This document shows, in pieces, positions 11,998-53,844 of a stretch of 64,000 nucleotides of DNA. A program made the position numbers and the translations under genes. Origin of the DNA: Candidatus Saccharimonadia bacterium. Its GTDB lineage: Bacteria > Patescibacteriota > Saccharimonadia > UBA4664. Under the pieces are notes generated by a model. It saw nothing but the letters and a program-made list of their open reading frames with translations, was not told where the DNA came from and did not search any database. Location of the stretch: positions 65,010 through 129,009 of the forward strand of contig DATIIV010000012.1 in assembly GCA_035479295.1 (NCBI GenBank), given 5' to 3'. The first letter of the stretch is position 1. Each line of letters starts with the position of its first letter.

Positions 11998-13263
11998 TTG
12001 TCGGGCGGCCTCTTTGCGCCGGCTACGTCTGCCGTTACACTACCCACAGTGGGCAGCCTCTTTACTCTTTTTCATAGCCTAATTTTGTCGCTACATATAG
12101 CGGCTTTTCCGGTATCGCCGTTTGTTTTTTCGACCCCGCAGGTGCCCTCGACGGCCGAGAATCCCCAGCCGCTGCGGGTGGTGACGCGCGTGATCGAGCC
12201 GTTTGTGATCGATGAGGGCAACGGTAAATATAGCGGCTACAGCATGGAGCTGCTCGACCTCATCCACCAGGAGCTCAAAGAGCCGAGCCTGCCGGCGGGG
12301 CAAGATTATGCCCTGTCGCCTCAGCAAAAAGCCGTTATTAATCTGCCCTTTGCTATCGAATCCCAGCCGGCCGCTAACGCCGAGGCGCTTGTTAAAACCG
12401 TTCAGGACAACGGCGCCGATCTCGGCATCGCCAGCATCTCCATCACGCAGGATCGCGAGGCTCGGGTCGACTTTAGCCTGCCCATGTACAGCTCGGGTTT
12501 GCAGGTGATGCAAACCACCGACAAGGCGCCCGGCCCAAACATCATGACGGCGCTCGGACATATCTTGAGCCGCCCCAAAACGCCGGCGGTTCTGTGGCTA
12601 GGATTCATCGGCATGGCGACGCTAGCCACTCTTATTTACCTGTTTGAGCAGCGTCACAGCAAGAGCTTTCTGTTTGGTGAGCCGCCGCTGGTGGGCATTG
12701 GCAACGCTTTTTGGTGGGGGCTAACCGTGTTGGTGGGCCAAGAAGAAGCGCACCCGCGGTCGAGTGTGAGTCGGCTGGCGGCTACCTTAATTATGGCTAC
12801 CGGTGTAATTGTTGTAGCGCTCTTTACGGCCTCGGTGGCCTCGGACTTAACGTTGCAGCAGCTGGACGATCCCGAGCGCGGCATCGATAGTCTAAACGGC
12901 CATGTAGTGGTGACGCTCGACGGCACAACCTCCGAATCCTACCTGGACCAGAAGCGGGTTGAGCTCAAGATTAAAGCCATCAAAACAGTTGGCACCTTGG
13001 ATGACGCCTACGCTATGCTCAAGAACGGCCAGGCCGACTCGCTGGTGTACGACGCACCTGTGTTGCAGTATTATGCTAGCCACCAGGGCCGTGGCAAGTT
13101 TACGACGGTGGGGCGGCCGTTTCACTCGGAGTATTACGGCATTGTCCTGCCTCAGGGCAGCCCCTGGCGCGAGCCGATTAGTCGAGCATTGCTGACGTTG
13201 TCCGAGGACGGCACGCTCGACCACTTGGCGCAAACGTACTTGGGCGATGCTAGCAACAATTAG
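11998..13263 (+). CDS. GluR0-like ligand-gated ion channel (bilobed periplasmic binding domain split by an M1-P-M2 pore module)
   Basis: Architecture is S1 lobe, TM helix (AVLWLGFIGMATLATLIYLF), re-entrant pore-like segment (GNAFWWGLTVLVGQ), TM helix (LAATLIMATGVIVVALFTASVA), then S2 lobe (DSLVYDAPVLQYYAS). There is no TVGYG K+ filter. Start uncertain. Confidence 0.55.
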   Translation: MSGGLFAPATSAVTLPTVGSLFTLFHSLILSLHIAAFPVSPFVFSTPQVPSTAENPQPLRVVTRVIEPFVIDEGNGKYSGYSMELLDLIHQELKEPSLPAGQDYALSPQQKAVINLPFAIESQPAANAEALVKTVQDNGADLGIASISITQDREARVDFSLPMYSSGLQVMQTTDKAPGPNIMTALGHILSRPKTPAVLWLGFIGMATLATLIYLFEQRHSKSFLFGEPPLVGIGNAFWWGLTVLVGQEEAHPRSSVSRLAATLIMATGVIVVALFTASVASDLTLQQLDDPERGIDSLNGHVVVTLDGTTSESYLDQKRVELKIKAIKTVGTLDDAYAMLKNGQADSLVYDAPVLQYYASHQGRGKFTTVGRPFHSEYYGIVLPQGSPWREPISRALLTLSEDGTLDHLAQTYLGDASNN

Positions 13264-27259: not shown

Positions 27260-29263
27260 TTATCGGAGTGAGGTTGGCGGTTTGGGTCGGCGCCATAGCC
27301 AGTGGTGCAGGGTTAGGCTGATGCCGCCGAGCAGGCCCAGGCTGAGGCCAATCAGCGAGGCGTTGACGGCCGTCTTGTTGCCCTTAAGCGGCGCAAAGAG
27401 TAGGTTGCGAATGGTCTGGAGGGGCGACAGGTTGTTCTGTACGTCGACGCGCCGGCTGGCTATTTGGGTCTGGCCGCTGGGCGTGGTGGTGACGGCCGTG
27501 ACGGTGTGCTGGCCGTTGGTGAGGTAGGTAGTGTCGAGCTGATTGCCAGTGGTAACGGGCGTGCCGTCGACTTTAATGATGGTGTGGCCGCGGCTGCCCG
27601 GCGTGCCCAGGCTGATGGTGCCGCCCACCACGGGCTGGGCACCGGCCGGAATGGGTACCGGCGTGCTGGTGCCGGGCGGCGTAATGGTAATGGGGTTGCC
27701 GCTGCCCGGCGCCGGGCTGGGCGAGGGGCTGGGGTTGGGCGGTGCCTGGGTCTGTACGGTGAGGTTGGCCCGGGCCGAGGCGTTGCCGGCGGCGTCGTAG
27801 GCCTCCACCTGAAAGGTGTAGTTGGTGGAGGCCGCCAGATTCTGGGCGAGGTAGCTGGTGCCGGCCTGGTCGGCCACGCGGCTGCCGCCCTGGTACACGC
27901 GGTAGCCGCGCACACCCACATTGTCGCTGGCGGCGTTCCAGGCCAGGCTAATCTGGGCGTTGGTAATGAGCGTGGCGCGCAGGCTGCCCGGCACCGACGG
28001 CGCCTGGGTGTCGCCGGGATTGGGCGTCGCGGTGGGCGGAGTCGTGGGCGTGGGAGTGTGGGTGGGCACCGGAGTTGGCGTGGGGGTATGAGTGGGGACG
28101 GGCGTGGGCGCTGTGGTTGGGGGAGGCGTTGGTGCGGGAGTGGTCGCGGCCAGGCTGTGGGCATAGTTCCAAATCAGCTGCCCCAGCGCATCGATGTTCG
28201 TGGGGTTGCCCGAGCTATTAACGGCCACATTGTAGAATGGCCCGCCGCCGTTCACAAACTCAAATCCGCTCAGGCCGTTGCCGTGCCAGGGCAGAATGCC
28301 CACGCCCAACCCCGGTGCCACGCTAAAGGCCGCCTGGGTGCCGGCCTGCAGCAGCGGGTTGTCGCCGGAGCTATCGCCATCGATCCAGCCGGTCTCGCCA
28401 ATCATCAGCGGCAGGTTTTGGCCGTGCATGGCCTGAATAAAGCTGCTTAGCTGGCTGCTCTTATTGGCCCAATTGCCATACACATGCACCGAGAACGCTA
28501 CATTACCGTAACTATTTTTTAACCCCGGTCCATACTGCAAAAAGGCGCTCTGACTATGCCAATCGCCGCCGTAACTCTGCTCCTGGCCGCAGTTTGAGCC
28601 ATCGTACACAATCATATTTTGGGCGCCGGTGGCTCGAATAGCACTCGAGTAATCGTTCATCATGTTGGTCCAGGTGCTGTCGGCATTGCCACTGCCAGGC
28701 TCATTATATAAGTTGAACCAGACGTAAGGATTCGTCTTGTAACGATTAGCTTTGTCGATCCACCAGGTCTTAATGGCGGCGTAGTCGGTGCCATTAACGT
28801 AACCGCAATCGGCACGGGGGTGCATGTCTATCATCACCACCATATGGCGGTTGGTGTACTCGGTGACGATGCCGTCCAGGTCGTTATTAACGCCCGAGAT
28901 GCCGGGGGTGACGCCGGCGTTGTACTGCGACGGATTCTCGGGGCCGCTGTCGAGCTCGCTGTTGAGGCGGATGATGTTCCACTTCCAGGCGGCCTGGGCC
29001 GGCCCGCTCTCGCCCAGGGTGGGGTTACCCCACACAAAGTGCGGCCCGTCCAAGTTGGTCCCCACCGGCGTAAAGACGGCGCCATTGGGGTCGATAATTT
29101 GCCAGCCGCTGAGGTGAAAAGTGCCGGCCGCGAGGCTGTGGCGCACCACGTACAGGCCCGCGACGACGGTGAGCGCCACCACCGCCGCCATGGCCACTAA
29201 GCTCCAGCGGCTGGTTAGTCGAAGACGCCCGAGAGCGATTTTGGAGCGGCGCTTACGCCTCAT
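27260..29263 (-). CDS. Secreted GH5 glycoside hydrolase with PT linker, Fn3 domain and C-terminal TM/basic tail
   Basis: Start ATG at 29263 follows AGGGA; the upstream in-frame codons lack an RBS. GH5 motifs NLYNEPG (acid/base) and GETGW (nucleophile). PT-rich linker, Fn3 sequence, C-terminal LIGLSLGLLGGISLTLHHWLWRRPKPP. Confidence 0.75.
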   Translation of the reverse strand: MRRKRRSKIALGRLRLTSRWSLVAMAAVVALTVVAGLYVVRHSLAAGTFHLSGWQIIDPNGAVFTPVGTNLDGPHFVWGNPTLGESGPAQAAWKWNIIRLNSELDSGPENPSQYNAGVTPGISGVNNDLDGIVTEYTNRHMVVMIDMHPRADCGYVNGTDYAAIKTWWIDKANRYKTNPYVWFNLYNEPGSGNADSTWTNMMNDYSSAIRATGAQNMIVYDGSNCGQEQSYGGDWHSQSAFLQYGPGLKNSYGNVAFSVHVYGNWANKSSQLSSFIQAMHGQNLPLMIGETGWIDGDSSGDNPLLQAGTQAAFSVAPGLGVGILPWHGNGLSGFEFVNGGGPFYNVAVNSSGNPTNIDALGQLIWNYAHSLAATTPAPTPPPTTAPTPVPTHTPTPTPVPTHTPTPTTPPTATPNPGDTQAPSVPGSLRATLITNAQISLAWNAASDNVGVRGYRVYQGGSRVADQAGTSYLAQNLAASTNYTFQVEAYDAAGNASARANLTVQTQAPPNPSPSPSPAPGSGNPITITPPGTSTPVPIPAGAQPVVGGTISLGTPGSRGHTIIKVDGTPVTTGNQLDTTYLTNGQHTVTAVTTTPSGQTQIASRRVDVQNNLSPLQTIRNLLFAPLKGNKTAVNASLIGLSLGLLGGISLTLHHWLWRRPKPPTSLR

Positions 29264-29311
29264 TGTGGTCCCTATTAATGTGCTTATGATTATATACTGC
29301 CTGCCCAGCAG

Positions 29312-29340
29312 TTGACGAATGCGGTTAAATGGGGGATTAT
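29312..29340 (+). promoter_or_regulatory. Putative sigma-70-like promoter of the LuxR-repeat operon
   Basis: TTGACG, 17 nt spacer, GATTAT; located about 40 nt upstream of GTG at 29380. Confidence 0.4.
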
Positions 29341-29379
29341 GGGCGGTGCCTTGTACCGAATGTACGGGAGTAATTAGAC

Positions 29380-30366
29380 GTGACAGCTTACGCAGAAGTG
29401 GCCGATGGCCACTGGGTCCGTCCCTCATTTAGCGCCTATGAACTTGAGGTGGCGGAGCGAATTCTAGCCGGCTATTCTCACAAGGTGTTGGCGCAGTGGC
29501 GTGCCCAATGCGTGGGCGCGGAACGAACGGATACGTCGATCACTTCGGTGCTGACTCGCTTGGGCCGGTTGGTTGCACGAGGCGATTCGATTCGCCTGAC
29601 GGTCATCATGGCGGAGCTGAGCTTAATTAAGCTGCCGAATGTGCAGCCCTGGGAAACTGATGCCTTGATGGAATCGGGCCTCAGTTTTGCCTGGGAACAG
29701 ATCCTGGAGCTGGCCATGAATGGCTGCAGCGCTCAACAGATCGCGACGAGGCTAAACCTCAGCTTCTCGCAGGTTCGAGGGCGGATCAGAATGTTACGCT
29801 ACTCCGGCGCGTTTAGGCAGTCTAGACTAATCCGACAGGTGGCAGTTTGGCTGACAACGAGATCTTTCATTCCGGACCGGCTTTCGAAGCGGCCGGTGGT
29901 TCAGGGGCCTCTGCTCTGGCATTACCTGATGGGCTACGATGAAGTGGAGACTCAGAGGCGACTTAACTGCGTCCCGTGGGTGGTGCCAACTTGGACAGCT
30001 CAAATGTTGACGCGCCTGAGAGAGACCTCGCTACTCAGAAGTTGTTTGGACGGCGTGAATAGCGGTAGGCTGCGGCTACCCTATCCACTGCGAGGATCCG
30101 TGGAGGCGCTGACTAAGCAGCCGCTTAGCTCTCGGTGCGTGGAGGAGCTGCGCGATCACGTGATGCGCGCTCGGAATATGACCCTTCAGCAGCAGGCTGC
30201 ACTACGTCAGCCTCAGCCTGATTGGCACGACATCTGTCGTGAGGTGCGCGTCGATACGCCCTGGCAGGCCCTGATGGTTGGGGCGGGTTATGTGTCTAGG
30301 CTAGATCAGTGTGGTGCTTTGGCGCCTCCGAACGCCTACAAGGGAGACGCACAGAATGGCAGCTAG
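29380..30366 (+). CDS. Multi-HTH LuxR-like DNA-binding protein, paralog 1
   Basis: GGGAG RBS and GTG start. Two LuxR/GerE-like HTH segments (ELEVAERILAGYSHKVLAQ; EQILELAMNGCSAQQIATRLNLSFSQVRGRIRMLR). No receiver or ligand-binding domain. Confidence 0.5.
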   Translation: MTAYAEVADGHWVRPSFSAYELEVAERILAGYSHKVLAQWRAQCVGAERTDTSITSVLTRLGRLVARGDSIRLTVIMAELSLIKLPNVQPWETDALMESGLSFAWEQILELAMNGCSAQQIATRLNLSFSQVRGRIRMLRYSGAFRQSRLIRQVAVWLTTRSFIPDRLSKRPVVQGPLLWHYLMGYDEVETQRRLNCVPWVVPTWTAQMLTRLRETSLLRSCLDGVNSGRLRLPYPLRGSVEALTKQPLSSRCVEELRDHVMRARNMTLQQQAALRQPQPDWHDICREVRVDTPWQALMVGAGYVSRLDQCGALAPPNAYKGDAQNGS

Positions 30367-31258
30367 CGATCTCGCTTGGGAGAATCCCTCGGAGCGACAG
30401 ATCTGCCAGCTTGTACTGGAGGGGAACAGCATACTTGGCATTGCCGAGCAGCTGGGACTGAGCCCCGGTGGCGTCAGAAGCAAGCTCAACCGAGTTCATA
30501 CCAGAACTGGCATTCACGGCCGGTCAGCGATGATCTTAGCGCTGACCGAAGCGGGCGTTCTAACCGTGCCGATCAGCCGAGCCCAGCAGCTAAAGACCTC
30601 TCCGGCGGTAATTCAATCTGACCCTTTCTGGTTGTTGCTAGCGGAGATATCGATGCTGGACGTCAGTCTCGGCTGGCTCAACAGTGCCTCTGGTCGCTCG
30701 GTTAAGCAGATTGACAAGCTGTGTGGCCGAGTTACTCGATTAATGCATAAGGCACACCCGGGTAGGTCCGTGCTTAACCAGATGGCAATCGATCGTGCTA
30801 TCCTGGGATCGATCCAACTGCCGCAGGCATCTCAACTGCAGCTGGTTTGGGGGCCGCTGCTATGGTACCTGCTGATGGGCTATGCGCCGCAGGAAATAGC
30901 CCTTGCTCTTTGCAAGAAAGGTTGGGTGATACCGGCGAAGAGATTAGTGGATCAATGGCTGGTGCGTTTGTGGAAGCAATGCGGCAGCGCTGGTGTGGCC
31001 CCGACACTCGTGCGGCTCGTGCGGCAGCGTCAGGTGCAGCTGCCCTATGTGCTGCAGCGGGCCACTGATCGGCTGAAGTTCATGGTGCCGGATGCTGCGC
31101 TGAGCGAGCAGTTAGATCAATGTTACGATACACTGGTGCGGCGGAGTCTGCCGCTGGGCGTTAACCTTAAAGACCAGTTTGGGCTCTGCGACCGCCTGGG
31201 AGTGGCCAATCCCTGGCAGGCTATGTTGGTGGCCGCCTATTTGGGGCGGCTGCGGTAA
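30356..31258 (+). CDS. Multi-HTH LuxR-like DNA-binding protein, paralog 2
   Basis: ATG at 30356 after GGGAG overlaps the upstream stop by 11 nt. Classic LuxR HTH ERQICQLVLEGNSILGIAEQLGLSPGGVRSKLNRVHTRTG. The C-terminal half is similar to paralog 1. Confidence 0.5.
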   Translation: MAASDLAWENPSERQICQLVLEGNSILGIAEQLGLSPGGVRSKLNRVHTRTGIHGRSAMILALTEAGVLTVPISRAQQLKTSPAVIQSDPFWLLLAEISMLDVSLGWLNSASGRSVKQIDKLCGRVTRLMHKAHPGRSVLNQMAIDRAILGSIQLPQASQLQLVWGPLLWYLLMGYAPQEIALALCKKGWVIPAKRLVDQWLVRLWKQCGSAGVAPTLVRLVRQRQVQLPYVLQRATDRLKFMVPDAALSEQLDQCYDTLVRRSLPLGVNLKDQFGLCDRLGVANPWQAMLVAAYLGRLR

Positions 31259-31261
31259 CTA

Positions 31262-31304
31262 GGGCGGGGAGGCATTCGTGCCTCCCCGCCCTTAACCATT
31301 TTTA
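31262..31304. terminator. Bidirectional terminator between convergent genes
   Basis: Perfect 13-bp stem GGGCGGGGAGGCA / TGCCTCCCCGCCC with loop TTCG, then TTAACCATTTTT. Confidence 0.65.
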
Positions 31305-31315
31305 GGCGTCGCTTG

Positions 31316-32113
31316 CTACACCTCCACCGTCTTTATCGTCCACATATCCCAGGCCAGGCCGCGATTGCCCAGGTAGGCGAACGGCAGGTAAAAATACCCC
31401 TTATCGCCCCAACCGGTGCCCCAAGAGTTGCGGCCAATGAACTGCTGCTTGGTCTGGTCGTAGCCCACAATCAGTACGGCGTGGCCGCCCAGCAGTTTCT
31501 CGCTCTTGTGGGGCAGAGGAATGACGCCGGTCGTATTAGCGGCTGGGCTCTCAAAGCTCTCATACACTGAGATACCGGTAATGAACGGGTAGCCGCTAGC
31601 TAGGCAGGCCAGCATATCGCCGAAGGGATTGAGGTGATGGGTGACGATGCGCTGATAGGTAAGGGCTTGATTTTTTTCGGCTTCATCAAAGCACTTTTTG
31701 GTAGGCTTAACGGTAAACTTGGTAATGTCGTAAGGCCAATCCGTCTCGGGTGCGCTCCCAATCTTAACGAGAACTTTAACACCATCGCGCAGCCGGGCGC
31801 CGGCATCGCTGTTAACCGTGCCTTCCACATCGCGCTCGTTCCAGTAAATAAAAAGACGGCTCGGTGTCATAAAGGCCTTGCCCTCTTGGTGGCGGTCAAA
31901 GTCGAAAGCGGCGGCCAGCGCGTTAGCGGTGCAGCTGCCCAAGTGGCCTTGGTTGTAAATGGGCGGACATTTGTGGCGCAGATCGGCCTGGGGCGGCAGG
32001 GGAGCGGCTACTTGGGCTAGGGCGGCCGTGCCGTCAAAGATGTGGTCCCGTTGGTCGGGTAGGTCGGGTAGCCAGCCGAGGCCGTGGTTTTGAGGAGTAA
32101 CGTTGTGTGCCAT
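31316..32113 (-). CDS. Papain-like (C1A) cysteine peptidase, no signal peptide, copy 1
   Basis: Catalytic Cys motif QGHLGSCTANAL, His motif GGHAVLIVGYD, Asn motif NSWG. Confidence 0.8.
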   Translation of the reverse strand: MAHNVTPQNHGLGWLPDLPDQRDHIFDGTAALAQVAAPLPPQADLRHKCPPIYNQGHLGSCTANALAAAFDFDRHQEGKAFMTPSRLFIYWNERDVEGTVNSDAGARLRDGVKVLVKIGSAPETDWPYDITKFTVKPTKKCFDEAEKNQALTYQRIVTHHLNPFGDMLACLASGYPFITGISVYESFESPAANTTGVIPLPHKSEKLLGGHAVLIVGYDQTKQQFIGRNSWGTGWGDKGYFYLPFAYLGNRGLAWDMWTIKTVEV

Positions 32114-32283
32114 AATGAGCCCTCATTTACGATGCTTGAATTATTTATTCTAGGCCTCAGCAGCGGTGGCGGGATTGGGCACATTGGCGATTAAATAGGC
32201 TTAAGCCGCCGAACAATTGGGCAAACCGGCTCTGGCGCGAGGGCGGGGTTAGGTCTAGGCTAAGGCCTAATCAAGCGACGTTT

Positions 32284-32679
32284 ATGGCATTGCGAATTCT
32301 GATTGTCGAAGATTCGGTTAGCATTCGTATGTTGTACCAGGAGGTGCTACACAAGGCGGGCTATGAGGTCGAGGTGGCGACGGACGGCCAGGTAGCCTTG
32401 AGGCTGGCTCAGGCGCAGCCGTTCGACTGTATTGTGGTTGACATGTTGATGCCAAACCTTGATGGGCTGGCCTTTCTTAAGGCCTTTGATTGTCGACGTC
32501 ATCCCAAGACGCGCGTGATCATGGCCAGCAACTTGGACGATCCGCAGAAACGCGAGCAGGCGCTGGCGCTGGGTGCGGCCGCCTACATCATCAAGGCCGA
32601 GGTGTCGTTGCCGGAGTTATTGCGCAAGATTGATCCGACGCGGCCTGCTCCCGGAGCTTCGGCCGAGGGCGTGCATTAA
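32284..32679 (+). CDS. Stand-alone response regulator receiver
   Basis: ILIVEDS ... CIVVDMLMP ... VIMASN ... K. 131 aa. Confidence 0.85.
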   Translation: MALRILIVEDSVSIRMLYQEVLHKAGYEVEVATDGQVALRLAQAQPFDCIVVDMLMPNLDGLAFLKAFDCRRHPKTRVIMASNLDDPQKREQALALGAAAYIIKAEVSLPELLRKIDPTRPAPGASAEGVH

Positions 32680-32709
32680 CCTCGTCCGCATGGTAATCTG
32701 GGCGATAGA

Positions 32710-34035
32710 ATGGATGATATTCAGTCTCAGCCTATCTTTTTGATTATTGTTGGCATCTCGGGCGATTTGGCGCGTCGCAAGCTCTTGCCGGCTCTGCGCC
32801 AGATTGCGGCGGCGGGTGAGTTGCCACGCGAGTTTCGGGTTATCGGCATCACCCGCCGGCAGCTCAATGTGGCCAGCCTAACGGCCGGCGATGCCTTTTT
32901 GGCCGCGCACCTGGAGCTCTACCAAATGGATCTGGCCGAAGTCGCGGCCTACGACGGCCTTAAGCGACATCTGGCACAGCTCGAGCAGCAGTTGGGCGGC
33001 GCGGCTCAGCGGCTGTATTATCTCTCGGTGCCGCCGCAGGTGTCTGGGCCAATCGTGCAATTATTGGGCGAGTCTGGCTTAGCGGCTATGCCAGACAGTA
33101 AGTTGCTGCTCGAGAAGCCGTTTGGCACCGATCTCGCTTCGGCTGAGGACTTTATTGCCCACACCCAGCGCCACTTTACCGAGGACCAAATCTACCGCAT
33201 CGACCACTACTTGGCCAAAGAGATGGCTCAGAATCTGCTGGTATTTCGGGGCGGCAATGCGCTGTTTCGGCGCACCTGGAACCATGAGTTTATCGAGCGC
33301 ATCGAGCTGCTGGCCAGCGAAGAGATCGGCATTGAGGGTCGCTCGGCCTTTTACGAGCAGACCGGCGCGCTGCGCGATTTGGTGCAGAGCCACCTGCTGC
33401 AGCTGGCGGCTCTCACGCTCATGGAGGTCCCGCCGGCCGGCGACGAGACCCAGCTGCGGGCGGCCCGGCTCGCCGCCTTGCAGGCGCTGCAGCCGCCGGT
33501 CGATAGTACGCGGGATGTGCGCCGCGGCCAGTATATTGGCTACCGGGCCGAGGTGGCCAACCCCGCTAGTGCCACCGAGACGTTTGTATCGCTGACGCTC
33601 CGATCGCACGATCCGCGCTGGCAGGGTGTGCCCATTACGCTCACAACCGGCAAAGGCCTGGCGCGCAAAACCACCGAAATTCGAATTCATTATCGTCAGA
33701 GCGAGGCCGACGAAGCCAATGAGCTGGTGCTGCGCGTGCAGCCGCGCGAGGGCATCGAGCTTGATCTGTGGGCCAAGCGACCCGGCTACGACCATCGGCT
33801 CGAACGCGTGCCGCTCGAGTTTGCCTACAGCCGTCACTTCGACTCGCTGCCGGAGGCCTACGAGCGCGTGCTGGTCGACGCCATGCGGTCGCGCCGCAGT
33901 CTGTTTGCTTCGAGCGAGGAGGTACTGGCCTCGTGGCGCATCCTGGCGCCGGTGCAGCGGGCTTGGGGCATGAGCGATAAAGACTTAATCCTCTATCCGC
34001 TTGGCAGTGAGCCGGCCGCCGTCATTGGTCGGTAA
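32710..34035 (+). CDS. zwf: Glucose-6-phosphate 1-dehydrogenase
   Basis: N-terminal NADP motif IVGISGDLARRKL, the RIDHYLAKE signature, and the EKPFG motif. Confidence 0.9.
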   Translation: MDDIQSQPIFLIIVGISGDLARRKLLPALRQIAAAGELPREFRVIGITRRQLNVASLTAGDAFLAAHLELYQMDLAEVAAYDGLKRHLAQLEQQLGGAAQRLYYLSVPPQVSGPIVQLLGESGLAAMPDSKLLLEKPFGTDLASAEDFIAHTQRHFTEDQIYRIDHYLAKEMAQNLLVFRGGNALFRRTWNHEFIERIELLASEEIGIEGRSAFYEQTGALRDLVQSHLLQLAALTLMEVPPAGDETQLRAARLAALQALQPPVDSTRDVRRGQYIGYRAEVANPASATETFVSLTLRSHDPRWQGVPITLTTGKGLARKTTEIRIHYRQSEADEANELVLRVQPREGIELDLWAKRPGYDHRLERVPLEFAYSRHFDSLPEAYERVLVDAMRSRRSLFASSEEVLASWRILAPVQRAWGMSDKDLILYPLGSEPAAVIGR

Positions 34036-34758: not shown

Positions 34759-36987
34759 TTAGCTCTGGGCGGCGGCGCCAGACTCAGCCGTTTTGGCTCT
34801 AGCCTTAGCTTCGGCCGCTGCTCCGTTGGGTTGCGGCAGCACAATTACCGAAGTGGTCTTAAGCGGCAGCGCGAAGCCAAAGATGCTACCCTTGCCCTCC
34901 TCGGACTTAAAAATAATCGAGCCACCTTGGTCCTCGATCACGCGCTTAGCTAGGTACAAGCCCAAGCCGGTGCCGTCCGGCCGCTCGGCCTTGGCGTTCT
35001 CGGCCCGGTAAAACTTGGAGAACAGGTGACGCTTCTCGTTCTCTGGCACGCCAATGCCGCTATCGATTACCAGCACCTCGGCAGCGCCCTCAGACTCGCG
35101 CACCTCCACCGTGACGCTGCCCTTGGGCGTGTAGTAAATGGCATTATCGATAAAATTCATAATCACCTGGCGCGTCTTGCTCTCGTCGATCGACAGCATG
35201 GGCAGCGGCTTGTCGGGCTGCTTAAAGATGAGTTCCAGCTTCTTGCGCTCGGCGCTCGGCCGCAGCTGCTGCACCTCCTGCTGGGCCAGCTCGCTCAAGT
35301 CCACCGGCTGGCGCTGAATCATAAACCGCCCCGAGCTCAGTCGCGACACATTCAGCAGATCGCTCGACATCGACACCATCCGCTCGGCCGCCTCTAGCGC
35401 GTAGTTAACATACTCGCGCTGCTTCACCGTCATGTTGGCCTGGTCGTCATCGAGCGCCATCGACAAGTAGCCGGTAATGGCGGTCAGCGGCGTGCCCAGC
35501 TGGTGCGACGCCATCGAGATGAAGTCGTCTTTGGTCTTATCCAGCACCTGCAAGTTGCGGTTGGCGGTGCGCAGTCGGTGCGTCGCATTGCGAATCCGCT
35601 CCTGCAGCGTGGCGTTAAAGTGGGCGATCTCTTCGTAGGATTTAGCGTTCTCAATCGCTACGGCTAGTTCTTTGCGGACGATATCGAGCAGCGTCAGATC
35701 CTGGCCCGAATACATTTCGCCACTCATCTTGTAGCCCAGGAAGAGATAGCCCACTAGCTCTTTCTCGGTGCTTAACCTAATAATGACGCCTAGGCCATGC
35801 TCCTCTAGGAATGATTTGGTTGCACCGGGCTCAAGCTCATCTGCTACCAAGGTGCTAGCGTTAATGTGCTCTAAATCCTTGTAGGTAAGTTTATAACGGG
35901 GCTCGTCACCAATGAATGTACGACTATAAATACTGTTGTTCTCGACAATGATGATTTGACCAGTAGCGATGCGCAATGACCAACAGAGCGTGCGCAATGA
36001 CTTCTTGAGGAGCGGTTCAAGTAAGAGCTCTGAAGTCAGAATCTCGCTTAAATCATCGAGCACGATCTGACTGTCGTAGCGATCTCGAAAGAATATGCTG
36101 TCGGTGACCTTCTCGAACAGTCGGCGTAAAGGCTGAAAGGTAATGGCTAGAAATAGCGCCAGGGCAACAAAGACACCAGTTTGGGCTAGCGGGATATTAT
36201 TCTGAAAGAGAATGTTGCTTGCCGCTAGGATGGTAATTCCATACAGGCCAATAAAAGTTGTAAGAAGCAAAAGATAGGCAACTGATCGGGCGACGGCTAG
36301 CCTGATACTAAAGAGTCGATGCTTAACGATAGCGTACGAGACCGACCCCACCAAGAAAACGGTTAGCAATGGGCCGATGCGCGATATGTCCCAGTTGCCG
36401 ACGATAGCCGGAATGACAATGTTTGTGAGCACAGCCAAGATAATAAAACCCGCTATTCCCAGCATAATAAGACGAGTTTGAGCGCGAAGCCGCAAGTCGA
36501 TTCCAGTGTTCCGGTACAGCTTCCAGAGGTAGTAGCAAGATAGTCCAAACATCACCAAGATGAAAATGGGGTAGAGAGTATAAAGGCTGCCGAGAGCAAC
36601 GTTGGTTCCTCCGTCGGGCCGCTTTGAGACGGGACCAACCACGAAATCGCTTAAAGAGAAGATGGTGCCAGCAATAATAATGACGGCACTAACAAGCTGT
36701 CTCCGCTTGCTGGCGCTTTGTTTGCCGCCAAAGTAAAACGCAAACAACGTTATGGTGGCTAACACGAGAAAACCGGCGCCAAAGTCAAGGCGAGCAAAGA
36801 ACTGATCAAGGCCAAGCGTGGGAGCTCGGTCGGTAAGATAATTGAAGATCGTCCAGGCGGTGATTGACAGGGAGATGCCAAAAAACGCCCGACTCTCGGC
36901 TCGCTGAGGGTTACGCATAAACACGAGCGAGCCGAGAGCCAAATTGCTTACTGAGGCGAGTATGAGGATGGCGAGGTCAAATATCAT
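34759..36987 (-). CDS. PrsK-like sensor histidine kinase (about 300-aa multi-TM N-terminal domain, GAF-like region, HisKA, HATPase_c), cassette A
   Basis: H-box ISMASHQLGTPLT, N-box IDNAIYYT, G-boxes DSGIGV and GTGLGL. Paralog of 53845-56013. Its start overlaps the upstream stop as ATGA. Confidence 0.8.
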   Translation of the reverse strand: MIFDLAILILASVSNLALGSLVFMRNPQRAESRAFFGISLSITAWTIFNYLTDRAPTLGLDQFFARLDFGAGFLVLATITLFAFYFGGKQSASKRRQLVSAVIIIAGTIFSLSDFVVGPVSKRPDGGTNVALGSLYTLYPIFILVMFGLSCYYLWKLYRNTGIDLRLRAQTRLIMLGIAGFIILAVLTNIVIPAIVGNWDISRIGPLLTVFLVGSVSYAIVKHRLFSIRLAVARSVAYLLLLTTFIGLYGITILAASNILFQNNIPLAQTGVFVALALFLAITFQPLRRLFEKVTDSIFFRDRYDSQIVLDDLSEILTSELLLEPLLKKSLRTLCWSLRIATGQIIIVENNSIYSRTFIGDEPRYKLTYKDLEHINASTLVADELEPGATKSFLEEHGLGVIIRLSTEKELVGYLFLGYKMSGEMYSGQDLTLLDIVRKELAVAIENAKSYEEIAHFNATLQERIRNATHRLRTANRNLQVLDKTKDDFISMASHQLGTPLTAITGYLSMALDDDQANMTVKQREYVNYALEAAERMVSMSSDLLNVSRLSSGRFMIQRQPVDLSELAQQEVQQLRPSAERKKLELIFKQPDKPLPMLSIDESKTRQVIMNFIDNAIYYTPKGSVTVEVRESEGAAEVLVIDSGIGVPENEKRHLFSKFYRAENAKAERPDGTGLGLYLAKRVIEDQGGSIIFKSEEGKGSIFGFALPLKTTSVIVLPQPNGAAAEAKARAKTAESGAAAQS

Positions 36988-37796
36988 GCGGGCGTAGGTC
37001 CTGTAAATGCTGGAAACTTGAAGACTTCTTGAAGACCCTCGCCCCGGAACAGCCAGCCAAATCGCTTTGGGTCATTAACGCAAAGGCGCGCCATCCAGTC
37101 CTCGATATCCACCCAAACGGGCAGGCTCAGACTTGAACCAAGGTAAGGCTTCCAACCTATCCCCTCGTAGTAGCTAAAGGGTTCACCAAGTCTGCGCTTG
37201 AAGCTGTTGTGAGCGGACTCATCAACTATTGTAACCCAATAGCGAGCAGCTTGCTCTAGTGTATACTTACATGCCATGTGGTAGATCGCCTTGGCGATCC
37301 GGCCCGAGTATGCGTGGCGATGGTAGGCCGGGACTACCCCCATTGTCACCATGTCTAGCGTAGTTTTGGGGCCAAAGTCGACAGCAGCGGCTTGTAGCGC
37401 CTGAGTTAGCGGTAGGTTCCAGTACCGACCAGGCTCGCTTGACTCGATGTCGGTGAGGCTTTTAAAGCCGAGGGGCGACCGTCTGATCACTCGCAACATT
37501 CCGGCTGGTAGACCGTTTGCATGGTCGATAAGGATAAAGAATGTGCTGTAGGGATCATATGGCCCATACTCTCTCTCTAGATCCTCTGGCGTGTCCCCGT
37601 AGAAAGCGAATACGTCCGCCTCCGCCAACCGCGCGACTGGCAATGCCCAGTGCGGTGTGCCGGTTTGGGGCTCGATGCGATAGACGCCAAATGGCTGCGA
37701 TGGCGCGGCATTACCCTGGTCCATGAGGCGGCGAATCAGGTCCTTAGAGCGAATCGTCTCTTCCCACTGTTCTCGCACTAGCCCCGTAGCGACCAC
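36984..37796 (-). CDS. GNAT-fold acyltransferase, LuxI / N-acyl-amino-acid-synthase-like (divergent), cassette A
   Basis: Shares motifs with 53094-53807 (E.LE...YD.YS.F; RYW.T; LG.P) and has the GVVPAYHRH GNAT-like core. Lower GC than the background. Confidence 0.4.
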   Translation of the reverse strand: MVATGLVREQWEETIRSKDLIRRLMDQGNAAPSQPFGVYRIEPQTGTPHWALPVARLAEADVFAFYGDTPEDLEREYGPYDPYSTFFILIDHANGLPAGMLRVIRRSPLGFKSLTDIESSEPGRYWNLPLTQALQAAAVDFGPKTTLDMVTMGVVPAYHRHAYSGRIAKAIYHMACKYTLEQAARYWVTIVDESAHNSFKRRLGEPFSYYEGIGWKPYLGSSLSLPVWVDIEDWMARLCVNDPKRFGWLFRGEGLQEVFKFPAFTGPTPA

Positions 37797-38137
37797 TAGG
37801 TCTCCTTAAACTCGATGTGTGAAGCCTTGAAATAACGCTGAGTAAACTCCACAGCGTTATTCACATTGAAAGCCTTGCAGGTATATATGTCAACGCTAAA
37901 GAAGAGGCGCGGTTGCTCCCAGGCGTATAGGTGAGCCCCCGATGTTTCCCAGTGAATCCAGCCAGCCCAGCCGTAGAGGTCTGAGCGGTGTGTCACCGGT
38001 TTGATGAGTGCTGTCATGCCTGTTACGACAGAGAGCTGTTCAAGGTAGTCTTTAATTTGGGCATCATCAATAGGTTGGGCGCAATAGCCCTCAATAATAA
38101 GCCGCTGCCGGTATATCTCCGGCGCTAGATCCCTCAC
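37796..38137 (-). CDS. S-adenosylmethionine decarboxylase-fold (SpeH/class 1b-like) small protein with atypical processing motif
   Basis: Aligns to SpeH: RQRLIIEGYCAQ vs GRHLVAEFYECD, and IHWETSGAHLYAWEQPRLFFSVDIYTCK vs [26 protein letters not shown]. The canonical ESH cleavage site is replaced by ETSGAH. Confidence 0.6.
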   Translation of the reverse strand: MRDLAPEIYRQRLIIEGYCAQPIDDAQIKDYLEQLSVVTGMTALIKPVTHRSDLYGWAGWIHWETSGAHLYAWEQPRLFFSVDIYTCKAFNVNNAVEFTQRYFKASHIEFKET

Positions 38138-38215
38138 CCCATAGCTCCTTGTTCAGGCCCATCATACTCTTCTTAGGACCGCTAAGTCTACGTAAAAAGA
38201 TGAAATTAAAGCGTT

Positions 38216-38734
38216 TTACGCCGCCCCAGCTGCTCCCGGAATCTCGTCCTTGGTATAGCCCGCCAAGATGCCGCGGACGATCTCCTCGACCTGCTTGGGC
38301 TTGTGCTCGCTCTTGATGATGTAGCGGACGGCGCCGAGCTCGAGGGCGGTCTGGACGTCGCTGTTGCCGGCCAGGTTGGTGAGCACCACCACCGGAAGAT
38401 TGGCCACGGCCGGATCGGCCTTGAGCTGCTTGAGCACCTCCATGCCGTTAAGCTTGGGCATCATGATGTCGAGCAGAATGAGCGTGGGGTTAACCGAGCG
38501 TGCTTTGTCGAGGCCCTCTTGGCCGTCGGTGGCCAGTTCAACCTCGTAATTATTCGAGGCAAAGATCGTCTGATACATCCGCGAGAGTAAGGCGTCATCT
38601 TCGATGATTAGAATCTTAGGCACACTGAAAACCTCATTTACGCCCATCATACACGAGGCAAGCGAGAAGCGGAAGCCCTTAAGCATAAGCTTTATCAAAG
38701 GACAAATTTCGCGGTTGAGCCGATGGAGCGGCAA
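38216..38734 (-). CDS. Stand-alone response regulator receiver (start probably internal, about 38647-38650)
   Basis: KILIIEDD ... LILLDIMMP ... VVVLTNL ... K. No output domain. Confidence 0.75.
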   Translation of the reverse strand: MPLHRLNREICPLIKLMLKGFRFSLASCMMGVNEVFSVPKILIIEDDALLSRMYQTIFASNNYEVELATDGQEGLDKARSVNPTLILLDIMMPKLNGMEVLKQLKADPAVANLPVVVLTNLAGNSDVQTALELGAVRYIIKSEHKPKQVEEIVRGILAGYTKDEIPGAAGAA

Positions 38735-39658: not shown

Positions 39659-40444
39659 CTATGCCTCCACGAGCTTGATGGTCCACAGATCGGAGGTCAG
39701 CTCGCGATCGGTGAGGTAGGCGAGCGGCAGGTAAAAGTAGCCGGCGTCGCCCCAGCGCTTGCCCCACGAGTTGCGGCAGATGAAGTAGCCAGCGGCCATG
39801 TCGTAGCCCACCACCAGGATGGCGTGGCCACCCAGGAGCTCCTCGTTGGGCTTCGGCACGGGAATGACGCCGGTGCGGTTGGCCTCGTCGCTCTCAAAGC
39901 TGGCGTAGACCGCGATGCCGGCCACGAACGGGCGGCCGGCCGCCAAGCAGCTGCGCATGTTGGTGTCGTCGCTCGTTACCTTGATGCGAGCGTACGACAG
40001 CACCTGGTTGGAGAGCGCGTCAGCGTAGCACTGGGCGGACGGCTTGACGGTGAAGCGGCTGATGTCGTACAGCCACTCGCTCTCGGGCGGCACGCCCAGC
40101 TTGGCCAGAACCTTCATGCCGTCGCGAAGGTAGGCGCCGGCGTCGGTGTCGACGGTGCCCTCGCGTGCGCGCTCATTGTAGTAAATGAACAGCCGGCTCG
40201 GGCCGATGGGCTCCTGACCCTGCCGGCGACGCTCCATGTCGTAGGCCGCCGCCAGCGCGTTGGCGGTGCAGCTGCCCAGCTGGCCCTGGTCGTACACGTC
40301 CGGGCAGTCCGGGCGCAGGTCGATGCTATTGGGCAGCTGCGAGGGGCGGATGTCTAGGCCGGCGCGGTCGAACTTGTGGTCGCGGGGGTCGCGCGGATCG
40401 GGGATATTCCCGAGGCCGTGGCCGCGGGGCGTTACGAGCGCCAT
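39659..40444 (-). CDS. Papain-like (C1A) cysteine peptidase, no signal peptide, copy 2
   Basis: QGQLGSCTANAL, GGHAILVVGYD, NSWG. Strong paralog of 31316-32113. Confidence 0.8.
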   Translation of the reverse strand: MALVTPRGHGLGNIPDPRDPRDHKFDRAGLDIRPSQLPNSIDLRPDCPDVYDQGQLGSCTANALAAAYDMERRRQGQEPIGPSRLFIYYNERAREGTVDTDAGAYLRDGMKVLAKLGVPPESEWLYDISRFTVKPSAQCYADALSNQVLSYARIKVTSDDTNMRSCLAAGRPFVAGIAVYASFESDEANRTGVIPVPKPNEELLGGHAILVVGYDMAAGYFICRNSWGKRWGDAGYFYLPLAYLTDRELTSDLWTIKLVEA

Positions 40445-51912: not shown

Positions 51913-52299
51913 CTAAACCTTCTTGGCTAGTAGCGCCTTTACCCGCTCCGTCACCTCTTTGGGCGTCATCTCGGCCTTCACAATGTAGTCGTCGGCGGCC
52001 ATTTTGTAGACGCGCGTGGCCGTCTCGGTGTCGCCCATGTTGGTTAGCACGACCACTTTAGCGTCGCGCCCATTGGCCTGAGAACGCAGCTTTTGCAGCA
52101 TCTCCAAGCCATTCATATTGGGCATCATCAAATCGAGCAAAATAATATCAGGTGCAAACGACTCAATTAATTCCAGTCCACCGGCGCCATCGCCGGCCGT
52201 GGCCACCTCGTAGCCCTCATTCTCAAACTTCACCCGATACATCTGCACGATCGCCATGTCGTCCTCGATGATCGCCACTTTGACTTTTTGGTCACTCAT
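51913..52299 (-). CDS. Stand-alone response regulator receiver
   Basis: VAIIEDD ... IILLDLMMP ... VVVLTNM ... K. 128 aa. Confidence 0.85.
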   Translation of the reverse strand: MSDQKVKVAIIEDDMAIVQMYRVKFENEGYEVATAGDGAGGLELIESFAPDIILLDLMMPNMNGLEMLQKLRSQANGRDAKVVVLTNMGDTETATRVYKMAADDYIVKAEMTPKEVTERVKALLAKKV

Positions 52300-52362
52300 A
52301 TCTGTAGTTTATAACGCGATTTAACCATAAGCAATTATTTCTCAGCTAATTTGTAGCTGCTG

Positions 52363-53010
52363 CTACTCGATAGGCAGACGATAGATGCGGTTAAGAATCT
52401 GGAGAGCAGTAAGCTTCTCTGCTGCCTCCAGCGGCTTGCCCACCGTAATGGCATAAGAAGGCCATAGCCATCGGCCGCGGCACCACTCGATGTGCACTGG
52501 AATTATCTTTACTTGAGGAGTCTTGGCTAGAACTTCAATGCCGCTTCGGGGCCGAATCTTATGCGGTGTGCGCTTGCCCTCAGGAAAGATCATGATAGAT
52601 TGGTGGTGTTTCAGAAACAGCTGGGCTGCAGTGAGGCCATAAATGTAAGAGGCATTGGCGCTAGCCGGGAAAGCTCCAAACGCAAAGAGGAAGTGACGTA
52701 GGAACTTGTCGAAGAGGGCGTTATGGGCAAAAAAGCGGAGAGGTGCTAGGCCGGCAAGGATGCCTGGTGGAAGTGCGACGCAAATTATAAACGGGTCAAA
52801 CATGCTCTGGTGATTTGCTGCAACTATATAGCAATGATCAGGACTAATATCACCAGGCTGGAGGTTGACTCTAGTCCGATGCGGTAGCAAGTGGGTAATG
52901 AGGCGAATTGGCCAGTAAAGGACGCGCTGACTGAGTAAGATCACGCGAAGACGGCCAGGCGATAAAAGCGAGTCAAGGGACGCAAAAGATTTTACTTGAG
53001 TAGCCGACAT
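52363..53010 (-). CDS. PlsC-family (lysophospholipid/1-acylglycerol-3-phosphate) acyltransferase
   Basis: HxxxxD motif (ANHQSMFD) and FPEGKRT motif. Lower GC. Confidence 0.7.
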   Translation of the reverse strand: MSATQVKSFASLDSLLSPGRLRVILLSQRVLYWPIRLITHLLPHRTRVNLQPGDISPDHCYIVAANHQSMFDPFIICVALPPGILAGLAPLRFFAHNALFDKFLRHFLFAFGAFPASANASYIYGLTAAQLFLKHHQSIMIFPEGKRTPHKIRPRSGIEVLAKTPQVKIIPVHIEWCRGRWLWPSYAITVGKPLEAAEKLTALQILNRIYRLPIE

Positions 53011-53093
53011 CGGTAAAATTGATGATATGTAATTGCGTAATTATATAATAATATTAAAGGCAATGCAAGATGCAAAATGAGGAGTAATAGATA

Positions 53094-53807
53094 GTGACAA
53101 ACAGGCAGGAGGGGGCGGCTGAGTCGGGGAAAGGGGGACTTGGCTCGAGGCATTTGCATTTTGAGGAGCATGGACTGGTCTTTCGCGAGTTAACAGCAGA
53201 GGCCGATTTTAGGGCCGCTTATCGGCTGCGTTATAAAATCTGTGTAGAGCAGCTGCATTGGGTGCAGGGGGTTCCCGAAGAGCAGCTTGAGTACGATGAT
53301 TATGATAAGTACTCGTACCACTTTGGCTGTTTTAGGGAGAGTAAGCTTATAGGGTATATGCGTATGACGCCAGAAGATAATTCCGTGGGCACCATGAGCC
53401 GCGACCACTTTGGCCATCTCTGGCAAATTGACCCTCAGTACCCTACCCACGAAACGGCTGACCTATCCCGACTCTTGGTGGATCGGCCCTATCTGCATAA
53501 ACCCTTGCTGCTGCGGCGAATTCTGATTGGTTTATACCGACTGGCCTACGGAAGGGCAGAATTGAGTCGGCCGCGCATTCGGTATTGGTATTTTATTACC
53601 ACGGGACGCTTGCTTAAGGCTTTAAGATGGCAGTTAGGCTTACCCGTCAAAGTGTTTGGCCACGATCAGACCTCAGATGGCAAAACCACCTATGCAGTCG
53701 GCCTCGATTTACAGCGGGGTCGCCGGAGACTCGCTATCCTCGCACCTTGGCGTCTTATCTACTTTGCCAGGGCTAAGCGGCTTCAACGCGATAATGAGCG
53801 TCCATAG
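53094..53807 (+). CDS. LuxI / N-acyl-amino-acid-synthase-like GNAT acyltransferase (PEP-CTERM-associated-acyltransferase-like), cassette B
   Basis: GAGGAG RBS, 9-nt spacer, GTG. Matches the LuxI-family pattern: RLRYKICVEQLHW, EYDDYD, GYMRM, ADLSRLLV. About 50% GC. Confidence 0.6.
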   Translation: MTNRQEGAAESGKGGLGSRHLHFEEHGLVFRELTAEADFRAAYRLRYKICVEQLHWVQGVPEEQLEYDDYDKYSYHFGCFRESKLIGYMRMTPEDNSVGTMSRDHFGHLWQIDPQYPTHETADLSRLLVDRPYLHKPLLLRRILIGLYRLAYGRAELSRPRIRYWYFITTGRLLKALRWQLGLPVKVFGHDQTSDGKTTYAVGLDLQRGRRRLAILAPWRLIYFARAKRLQRDNERP

Positions 53808-53844
53808 TATCAACTTAAGCAAAAGAGCTATAGAATAAAGATTA

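Follow-up and report, generated by a model that had tools for sequence, protein, structure and literature searches.

Among described DNA-binding proteins, those closest in fold to the gene pair considered here are GerE of Bacillus subtilis and other stand-alone GerE-type proteins, which share with the pair a tetra-helical helix-turn-helix (HTH) fold and the lack of a sensor domain. The two genes, P1 (positions 29380-30366, plus strand) and P2 (30356-31258, plus strand), lie in a stretch of 64,000 nucleotides from Candidatus Saccharimonadia bacterium (GenBank assembly GCA_035479295.1, contig DATIIV010000012.1, positions 65,010 to 129,009 of the forward strand), referred to below as the window. 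GerE is a single domain of 74 amino acids (aa) that forms a homodimer, whereas P1 and P2 each consist of four fused units, most of them degenerate, and are co-encoded as two paralogous chains. We put at roughly one half the probability that P1 and P2, as operonic, probably coupled and old paralogs of four GerE-type units, act as a sensor-less heteromeric DNA-binding regulator. Two aspects are new here, namely the near-orphan status of the family and its location in a hypervariable cassette.

Sequence databases also contain uncharacterised single-chain proteins with four GerE units. One of these, P0006 (323 aa), known from metagenomes and from assembly GCA_043764315.1, is similar in length to P1 and P2 and has the same unit spacing. 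However, P0006 is the product of one gene and all four of its GerE units are canonical (Pfam GerE, 195.9 bits over four stretches), while P1 and P2 come from an overlapping gene pair and contain one canonical unit each. P1 and P2 further differ from P0006 in the extensive decay of their units, in the complementary retention of one HTH by each of the overlapping paralogs, in their distinctive conserved C-terminal half and in the hypervariability of the locus. No relevant paper on tandem GerE or LuxR HTH arrays was found in the literature searched.

Two well-known kinds of regulators provide a possible working analogy. RcsA and RcsB are two different LuxR-type HTH chains that cooperate on one DNA site, and the LuxR solos of quorum sensing are regulators encoded without a cognate synthase. 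Unlike these proteins, P1 and P2 lack receiver and autoinducer-binding domains, their HTH is N-terminal or internal instead of C-terminal, and their chains comprise several units. Several HTH units per polypeptide are also found in Cbp1, an archaeal protein that binds CRISPR repeats, and in the Myb R1R2R3 proteins, but there is no real homology between these and P1 or P2. The match of P1 to the NCBIfam model HTH_Cbp1 is weak (16.6 bits, cut-off 140; E = 0.006), and the window contains no CRISPR-like, tandem-repeat or other repeat array.

Domain architecture

P1 (328 aa, isoelectric point (pI) 9.5) and P2 (300 aa, pI 9.9) are paralogs, each of which is a complete four-unit copy. Their C-terminal halves match each other with E = 1e-9 in BLASTP, and in a full-length MAFFT alignment the two proteins are collinear from end to end at 25% identity. 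The first-pass annotation, made from the sequence alone, had described them as tandem paralogs made of repeated LuxR-type HTH units without a sensor domain. This description is borne out by the BLASTP match, by the profiles of the single units and by the failure of Pfam and NCBIfam searches to detect a receiver, autoinducer-binding or STAND/NTPase domain in either protein; the autoinducer-binding domain PF03472 had no match in these two libraries even at E <= 10.

The AlphaFold2 models, although of low confidence, show four blocks of four helices in each protein, at residues 19-78, 102-161, 178-227 and 235-310 of P1 and at residues 11-65, 90-150, 162-223 and 231-296 of P2. The corresponding units are aa 1-88, 89-168, 169-236 and 237-328 in P1, and aa 1-75, 76-158, 159-228 and 229-300 in P2. 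P1 has a clear LuxR-type HTH in unit 2, around aa 107-140, followed by the motif GPLLWHYLMGY in unit 3 and by PWQALMV in unit 4, which ends in a low-confidence tail of about 20 aa. In P2, the canonical GerE/LuxR HTH is found in unit 1 (aa 13-60), and the counterparts of the two C-terminal motifs are WGPLLWYLLMGY in unit 3 and NPWQAMLVAAYLGRL in unit 4. When the P2 model was compared with known structures by Foldseek, 28 of the 30 best PDB matches were DNA-binding domains of the GerE/LuxR type, with a TM-score of about 0.75 on the target.

In each of the two proteins one unit can be detected with Pfam. The GerE model (PF00196, gathering score 23.5 bits) matches P2 at aa 13-60 with 22.0 bits in the full-length protein and with 24.6 bits when the unit is excised, and matches P1 at aa 107-129 with 20.3 bits over a part of the model (positions 9-31 of 57). 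The units were also compared profile to profile. For this purpose, a five-sequence family alignment was cut into four units, and hhalign was used to compare each of them with a reference made from eight bona fide GerE units of the proteins P0005, P0006 and P0007, with 150 column shuffles as the control. Unit 1 scored 58.5 (shuffles 8.4 +/- 1.8), unit 2 scored 26.9 (7.9 +/- 1.6) and unit 3, aligned in register over 50 columns, scored 20.4 (8.5 +/- 1.7), scores that none of the shuffles reached. The score of unit 4 was marginal at 10.7 (7.4 +/- 1.6) and was reached by 6 of the 150 shuffles, while unit 4 of the relative L005rec, taken alone, matches the HTH part in register with E = 1e-3. Unit 3 is thus demonstrably the same GerE-type module and unit 4 is probably another one. 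The first-pass annotation had recognized that the C-terminal half is shared by P1 and P2 without being able to assign it; this half, with its GPLLWxxLMGY and PWQA motifs, is best read as two more decayed GerE-type units.

Where the Pfam search was borderline, the single-unit profiles gave a clear result, with E = 9e-15 for unit 1 of P2 and E = 1e-7 for unit 2 of P1 (94% in hhalign). Unit 1 of P1 was matched only partially (E = 3e-4), over just 18 columns, so the earlier statement that P1 carries two clear HTHs was overstated, although that of one clear HTH in each protein stands. Taken protein by protein, only unit 1 of P2 and unit 2 of P1 appear, from their sequences, to be clearly canonical. 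Each paralog accordingly retains one canonical LuxR HTH at a different position, a case of complementary retention.

Against PDB, the family profile matched the entries 6jqs and 1fse (GerE) with E values of 1e-4 to 1e-3, and it is collinear with units 2-4 of P0006 over 170 columns, covering family units 1-3 (probability 86%, E = 5e-6). The PDB profile search returned no match for unit 3 and only noise for unit 4. For unit 2 it also returned 8vd6 (E = 2e-6), a de novo designed 'CAP repeat' protein, which was rejected because its E value is inflated by repeats: the score sums five identical HTH-like repeats of 22 residues at about 5 bits each.

In fold and ancestry, P1 and P2 belong to the LuxR/GerE superfamily, the defining tetra-helical bundle with helices 2-3 as the HTH being present, whereas none of the better-known families that contain this module can accommodate them. 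They are not NarL/FixJ regulators, as neither has a match to Response_reg and the canonical HTH lies at the N-terminus of P2 and in the interior of P1. They are not LAL/MalT proteins either, having no NTPase match and chains of just 300-328 aa. A place among the LuxR receptors for N-acyl homoserine lactones is at odds with the absence of an autoinducer-binding domain from the proteins and of a LuxI-type synthase from the neighbourhood. Sigma-70 factors are excluded likewise, region 2 being undetected; weak matches to Sigma70_r4_2 (16-17 bits, cut-off 25.7) overlap the GerE match, and sigma-70 region 4 is homologous to GerE. All four full-length members of the family are basic (pI 9.3-9.9), which supports sequence-specific DNA binding as a dimer only indirectly. 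Each chain is a sensor-less, basic, all-alpha run of four HTH-derived units.

Relatives of P1 and P2

The P1/P2 family is almost an orphan. When 5.8 billion protein clusters were searched by word index, using P2, P1 and a four-sequence profile as queries, only the query's own sequences were recovered. A P1+P2 profile, run exhaustively with HMMER against 1.84 billion representative proteins, found just two true relatives, both on short metagenome contigs (L004 from JGI, 2.2 kb, and L005 from ENA, 1.3 kb). The next matches (E of about 1e-4) were unrelated proteins in which two to four GerE units are canonical. No further loci emerged when collections of metagenome and genome contigs were scanned, an exact 23-mer from the conserved promoter block described below was absent from genome contigs, and look-ups of the flanking genes in 90% clusters added only the L004 peptidase.

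On L004, the relative is P0003 (302 aa, E = 9e-43). Upstream of it is the end of a P1-like gene, encoding the 59 C-terminal residues, and downstream is a Peptidase_C1 gene in convergent orientation. On L005, P0004 is the second half of a gene for about 300 aa that was called as two genes: one G is lost from a G-run at positions 846-852 (1.9x coverage), which reads GTATGGGCCC where GTATGGGGCCC would restore ...LVVWGPLLRYWLLGY... The split probably reflects an error of assembly or sequencing and not a pseudogene. The L005 gene lies behind the same divergent promoter as P1 and a GH5-like gene start, and is followed by GGAGG-N7-ATG of a further gene.

Gene organization and expression signals

P1 starts with GTG and P2 with ATG, and the 3' end of P1 overlaps the 5' end of P2 by 11 nucleotides (nt). 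Each gene has a GGGAG ribosome-binding site 9 nt upstream of its start codon, read from the sequence at 29366-29370 for P1 and at 30342-30346, within the 3' end of P1, for P2 (both plus strand). Two overlapping genes with these ribosome-binding sites had already been proposed, and public gene callers made identical calls in three independent assemblies, i.e. the metagenome-assembled genome (MAG) GCA_964451975.1 at NCBI (Candidatus Saccharimonadia bacterium, 130,948-bp contig) and the Logan assemblies of SRR9179560 and SRR9179562. The NCBI name of P1 is 'hypothetical protein VLI05_02880, Candidatus Saccharimonadia bacterium'. P1 and P2 form a co-transcribable pair. The overlap and the placement of the second ribosome-binding site make a layout compatible with translational coupling, and coupling of P1 and P2 is very likely.

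As suggested by the first-pass annotation, the pair is bordered by a glycoside hydrolase and a papain-like peptidase. The divergent left neighbour (27260-29191, minus strand, 643 aa in the public call) encodes a GH5 cellulase with an fn3 domain, and the convergent right neighbour (31316-32113, minus strand) encodes a Peptidase_C1 protein of 265 aa; both belong to the conserved flanks outside the cassette. A paralog of this peptidase is encoded 8 kb away on the same minus strand (39659-40444), and the L004 peptidase is 82.5% identical in DNA to the copy at 31316-32113 and 68% identical to the one at 39659-40444.

The sigma-70-like promoter previously noted upstream of P1, TTGACG-17-GATTAT (29312-29340, plus strand), is present and agrees with the consensus at 9 of 12 positions. 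Facing the GH5 gene on the minus strand is TCGTCA-18-TATAAT, with 10 of 12 consensus positions. The two promoter-like sites (29289-29340) are arranged back to back, and their -35 hexamers overlap (TTGACGA / TCGTCAA). A scan of the region found two such sites against 1.0 expected, so that the consensus match alone is not significant. Both hexamers of the P1 promoter are identical in L005, as is a whole 24-nt intergenic block, ATTAATGTGCTTATGATTATATAC, which holds the minus-strand TATAAT (100% identity).

Between the convergent P2 and Peptidase_C1 genes there is a G+C-rich hairpin (31261-31292; -32.2 kcal/mol, z = -5.5) that is conserved in L004. It had been described as a perfect 13-bp terminator. 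The hairpin is indeed perfect, with 14 bp in our analysis, but it was missed by a terminator scan because no T-run follows it directly; it is probably a bidirectional terminator that lacks the canonical T-run.

A hypervariable cassette

Between positions 29347 and 31185, DNA identity to L004 and L005 is 34-61%, compared with 64-93% in the flanks. On the left, identity is 64-85% over the 5' end of the GH5 gene and the promoter, as far as about 29346 (75% to L005 over the GH5 N-terminus and promoter region), and on the right, the DNA beyond about 31285 is 73-93% identical per 100 nt. The Peptidase_C1 protein is 92% identical to its L004 copy, while inside the cassette protein identity is 41% between P2 and P0003 and 44% between the C-terminus of P1 and the upstream gene of L004. 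The L005 gene is 30% identical to P2 and 20% identical to P1. With this first gene of L005 closer to P2 than to P1, the content of the cassette may differ between lineages.

The cassette genes are nevertheless under constraint. Identity by codon position is 55.6, 60.4 and 37.5%, with third positions the least conserved, and nonsynonymous divergence (dN) is 0.59 at a synonymous divergence (dS) of the gene itself of about 2.2, giving a dN/dS of about 0.26; both the codon-position pattern and this ratio indicate purifying selection. For the flanking peptidase, dN is 0.046 and dS is 0.80, estimates that, like those for the cassette gene, are rough at this distance; the peptidase value of dS could also be lowered by constraint on codon usage. 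Where the residue is identical, four-fold degenerate sites differ in 64% of cases between P2 and P0003 as opposed to 39% for the peptidase (Fisher p = 0.0014). The higher synonymous divergence inside the cassette favours older allelic lineages or cassette exchange over faster evolution of the proteins in place. Closely related genomes have the flanks in common but differ deeply in their alleles of the pair, which points to allele exchange or long-maintained allelic lineages, beyond ordinary in-place drift.

Such a pattern raises the possibility of a polymorphic specificity or conflict module, in which selection would maintain diversity and variable recognition helices would set allele-specific recognition of DNA or of a partner in an epibiotic bacterium of the candidate phyla radiation (CPR). 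The sharp borders of divergence, at about 29347 and at about 31185-31285, are in line with this idea, as are the excess of synonymous divergence over the flank and the presence of three different alleles in three samples. Units 1-2, which bear the HTHs, are the most variable (15-37% identity, against 19-51% in units 3-4), and the P2-like first gene of L005 can be viewed as shuffled cassette content. Among known systems, the immunity regions of lambdoid phages and the pherotype loci comQXP and agr are generally known to show a similar sharp drop of identity, confined to a few genes between conserved flanks and accompanied by raised synonymous divergence. In contrast to those loci, the P1/P2 cassette, of which just three alleles have been seen, has no phage context and contains no peptide pheromone or kinase.

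Several results speak against such a module. There are only two comparators, dN/dS does not exceed 1, and no partner toxin, pheromone or operator was identified. Searches of PHROGs and PADLOC gave P1 and P2 only generic HTH-level matches, so no defence or phage assignment emerged from these libraries, and tblastn against phage and plasmid records gave no match. No mobile-element genes or tRNAs are found near the cassette, the only tRNAs being 28 kb away; no Rfam family occurs in 27000-33000; and G+C content at third codon positions (GC3) lies within the range of the neighbours, giving no foreign signal. On balance, a specificity module of this kind, comparable to phage immunity regions, pherotype loci or determinants of kin or host specificity, is a tentative option that we regard as unlikely. 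More doubtful is the more specific proposal that an epibiotic CPR bacterium has in this cassette a polymorphic specificity locus, balanced or exchanged, in which the recognition helices of multi-HTH proteins diversify and alleles are swapped between lineages by recombination at the conserved promoter and at the 3' end of P2. If true, it would be an immunity- or mating-type-like idiomorph made from LuxR-derived repeats, a kind of system that to our knowledge has not been described so far.

Proposed mechanism

The reading that we favour at about even odds, a sensor-less heteromeric regulator, would have arisen by fourfold concatenation of a LuxR/GerE module and subsequent formation of the paralogs, with decay of most of the units. 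The two basic chains would act together as a heteromer and present two competent HTHs, unit 1 of P2 and unit 2 of P1, to DNA in the manner of a LuxR/GerE homodimer. The more conserved units 3 and 4, with their WGPLLWxLLMGY ... PWQA signature, may serve as the scaffold or interface. Such a protein would be a constitutive transcription regulator controlled through its own expression, and its candidate targets are its own promoter and the back-to-back promoter region of the GH5 gene.

A number of observations weigh against this mechanism. Both full-length proteins score below the Pfam gathering threshold for GerE, and for the relatives P0003 and L005rec no Pfam model exceeds its threshold. Overall confidence of the structural models is low, with a predicted local distance difference test score (pLDDT) of 57 for P2 and 55.5 for P1, and it falls below 50 in unit 2 of P2 and in units 1-2 of P1. 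Family members do not share conserved recognition helices in units 1 and 2, and so DNA binding may have been lost in some members or may not be a shared function. No operator-like repeat is present in the 188-bp divergent promoter region, which contains only short two-copy matches, and a short direct repeat in the leader, TGTAC-N4-TGTAC, shows no enrichment in the window (3 sites, 1.5 expected; a number reached by 22 of 100 shuffles). Conservation of the promoter while the proteins diverge would not be expected if an autoregulatory operator upstream of the -10 hexamer co-evolved with them. Finally, the evidence for hypervariability comes from two short comparator contigs of 2.2 and 1.3 kb.

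Some of these observations could also be taken to mean that P1 and P2 are HTH-derived proteins that no longer bind DNA, a young, lineage-restricted pair under relaxed constraint that serves as a structural or protein-binding scaffold or is heading to loss. Most of the units fail to match Pfam, L005rec has no match at all, and unit 1 of P0003 has a recognition helix without basic residues; the family is nearly orphan and its dN is very high (0.59). However, three lineages have intact open reading frames (ORFs) of about 300 aa, and the one frameshift is the 1-nt G-run loss in L005 at 1.9x coverage. The WGPLLW..MGY and PWQA motifs are conserved, as is the high pI; the codon-position pattern and the dN/dS of about 0.26 reflect purifying selection; and the promoter, ribosome-binding sites and terminator hairpin are all intact and conserved. 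This reading appears rather unlikely.

Signalling genes in the window

The window encodes at least four receiver-only proteins (26758-27165, 32284-32679, 38216-38734 and 51913-52299) and three histidine kinases, and no response regulator that carries an output domain was seen among the scanned ORFs. The cassette is flanked by two of these receivers. Such a gene content is in line with the suggestion of the first-pass annotation that P1 and P2 might be the missing DNA-binding output partners of the stand-alone receivers and of a nearby LuxI-like system. However, the flanking receivers have their best matches among receiver domains of the OmpR/PhoB class, with NarL, the class that normally carries a LuxR-type HTH, far down the list. 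The receiver gene at 32284 begins within conserved flanking DNA (81% identity), in contrast to the hypervariable P1 and P2, a pattern that would be unexpected for tight protein-protein partners. The quorum-sensing part of the suggestion does not hold. The only candidate for a LuxI-like synthase is a GNAT-family protein (53094-53807, plus strand) encoded 22 kb away beside a PlsC acyltransferase; it fits Acetyltransf_5 (32 bits) and acyltransferases like those of TIGR03694 better than Autoind_synth, with 20.9 bits on Autoind_synth against a cut-off of 24 and 43.7 bits on TIGR03694 against a cut-off of 112. With an autoinducer-binding domain also missing from P1 and P2, the idea of a missing output regulator is unsupported and a role of this kind is improbable. 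Least credible of all, and refuted within the limits of assembly data, is an artefact in which P1 and P2 would be pieces of one frameshifted gene: an 11-nt overlap could in principle stem from an indel, but the NCBI MAG and both of the independent Logan assemblies contain the same sequence, the two ORFs are complete copies with four collinear units each, and the P1-like gene of L004 has its stop codon 51 nt before the P2-like start, which has a ribosome-binding site of its own.

The GNAT gene is part of a signalling cassette (51913-56013) that comprises a receiver (51913-52299, minus strand), a PlsC-type acyltransferase (52363-53010, minus strand), the GNAT protein itself and a HisKA_7TM histidine kinase (53845-56013, plus strand). 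The GNAT and PlsC proteins look more like a pair for N-acyl amino acid or ornithine-lipid synthesis (OlsB/OlsA-like) than like LuxI. A second signalling cassette (34759-38734, minus strand) encodes another HisKA_7TM kinase (742 aa), a paralog of the kinase at 53845-56013 with 44% identity, together with a 270-aa protein without family match (36984-37796) that is not similar to the GNAT protein, a small protein resembling S-adenosylmethionine (AdoMet) decarboxylase (37796-38137) and a receiver (38216-38734).

Elsewhere in the window, the ORF at 11998-13263 (421 aa) combines a domain for periplasmic solute binding (SBP_bac_3 / Lig_chan-Glu_bd) with one of ligand-gated ion channels (Lig_chan) and encodes a prokaryotic glutamate-receptor-like channel. 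The region 21253-25106 contains ORFs without family matches, namely 21253-22347 (364 aa) and the adjacent 23531-24283 (250 aa) and 24348-25106 (252 aa).

Implications

P1 and P2 are a rare variant of a known DNA-binding fold, and a link to quorum sensing is without evidence. If the heteromeric regulator that we favour is real, a LuxR/GerE module has been concatenated four times, duplicated and then decayed in complementary fashion, and it may take both chains to restore a single DNA-binding unit. Saccharimonadia have reduced genomes and their regulation is poorly understood; the pair would add a transcription-factor-like system to the few regulators known in this group.

The pattern of the cassette matters more than the domain architecture, with alleles that are 20-44% identical placed inside flanks that are 64-93% identical. 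Should this pattern fail when more genomes are available, P1 and P2 would be an ordinary fast-evolving, lineage-specific pair of HTH proteins. Should it hold, the locus would be under unusual evolutionary pressure in a host-dependent bacterium and would provide a concrete handle on strain-level specificity.

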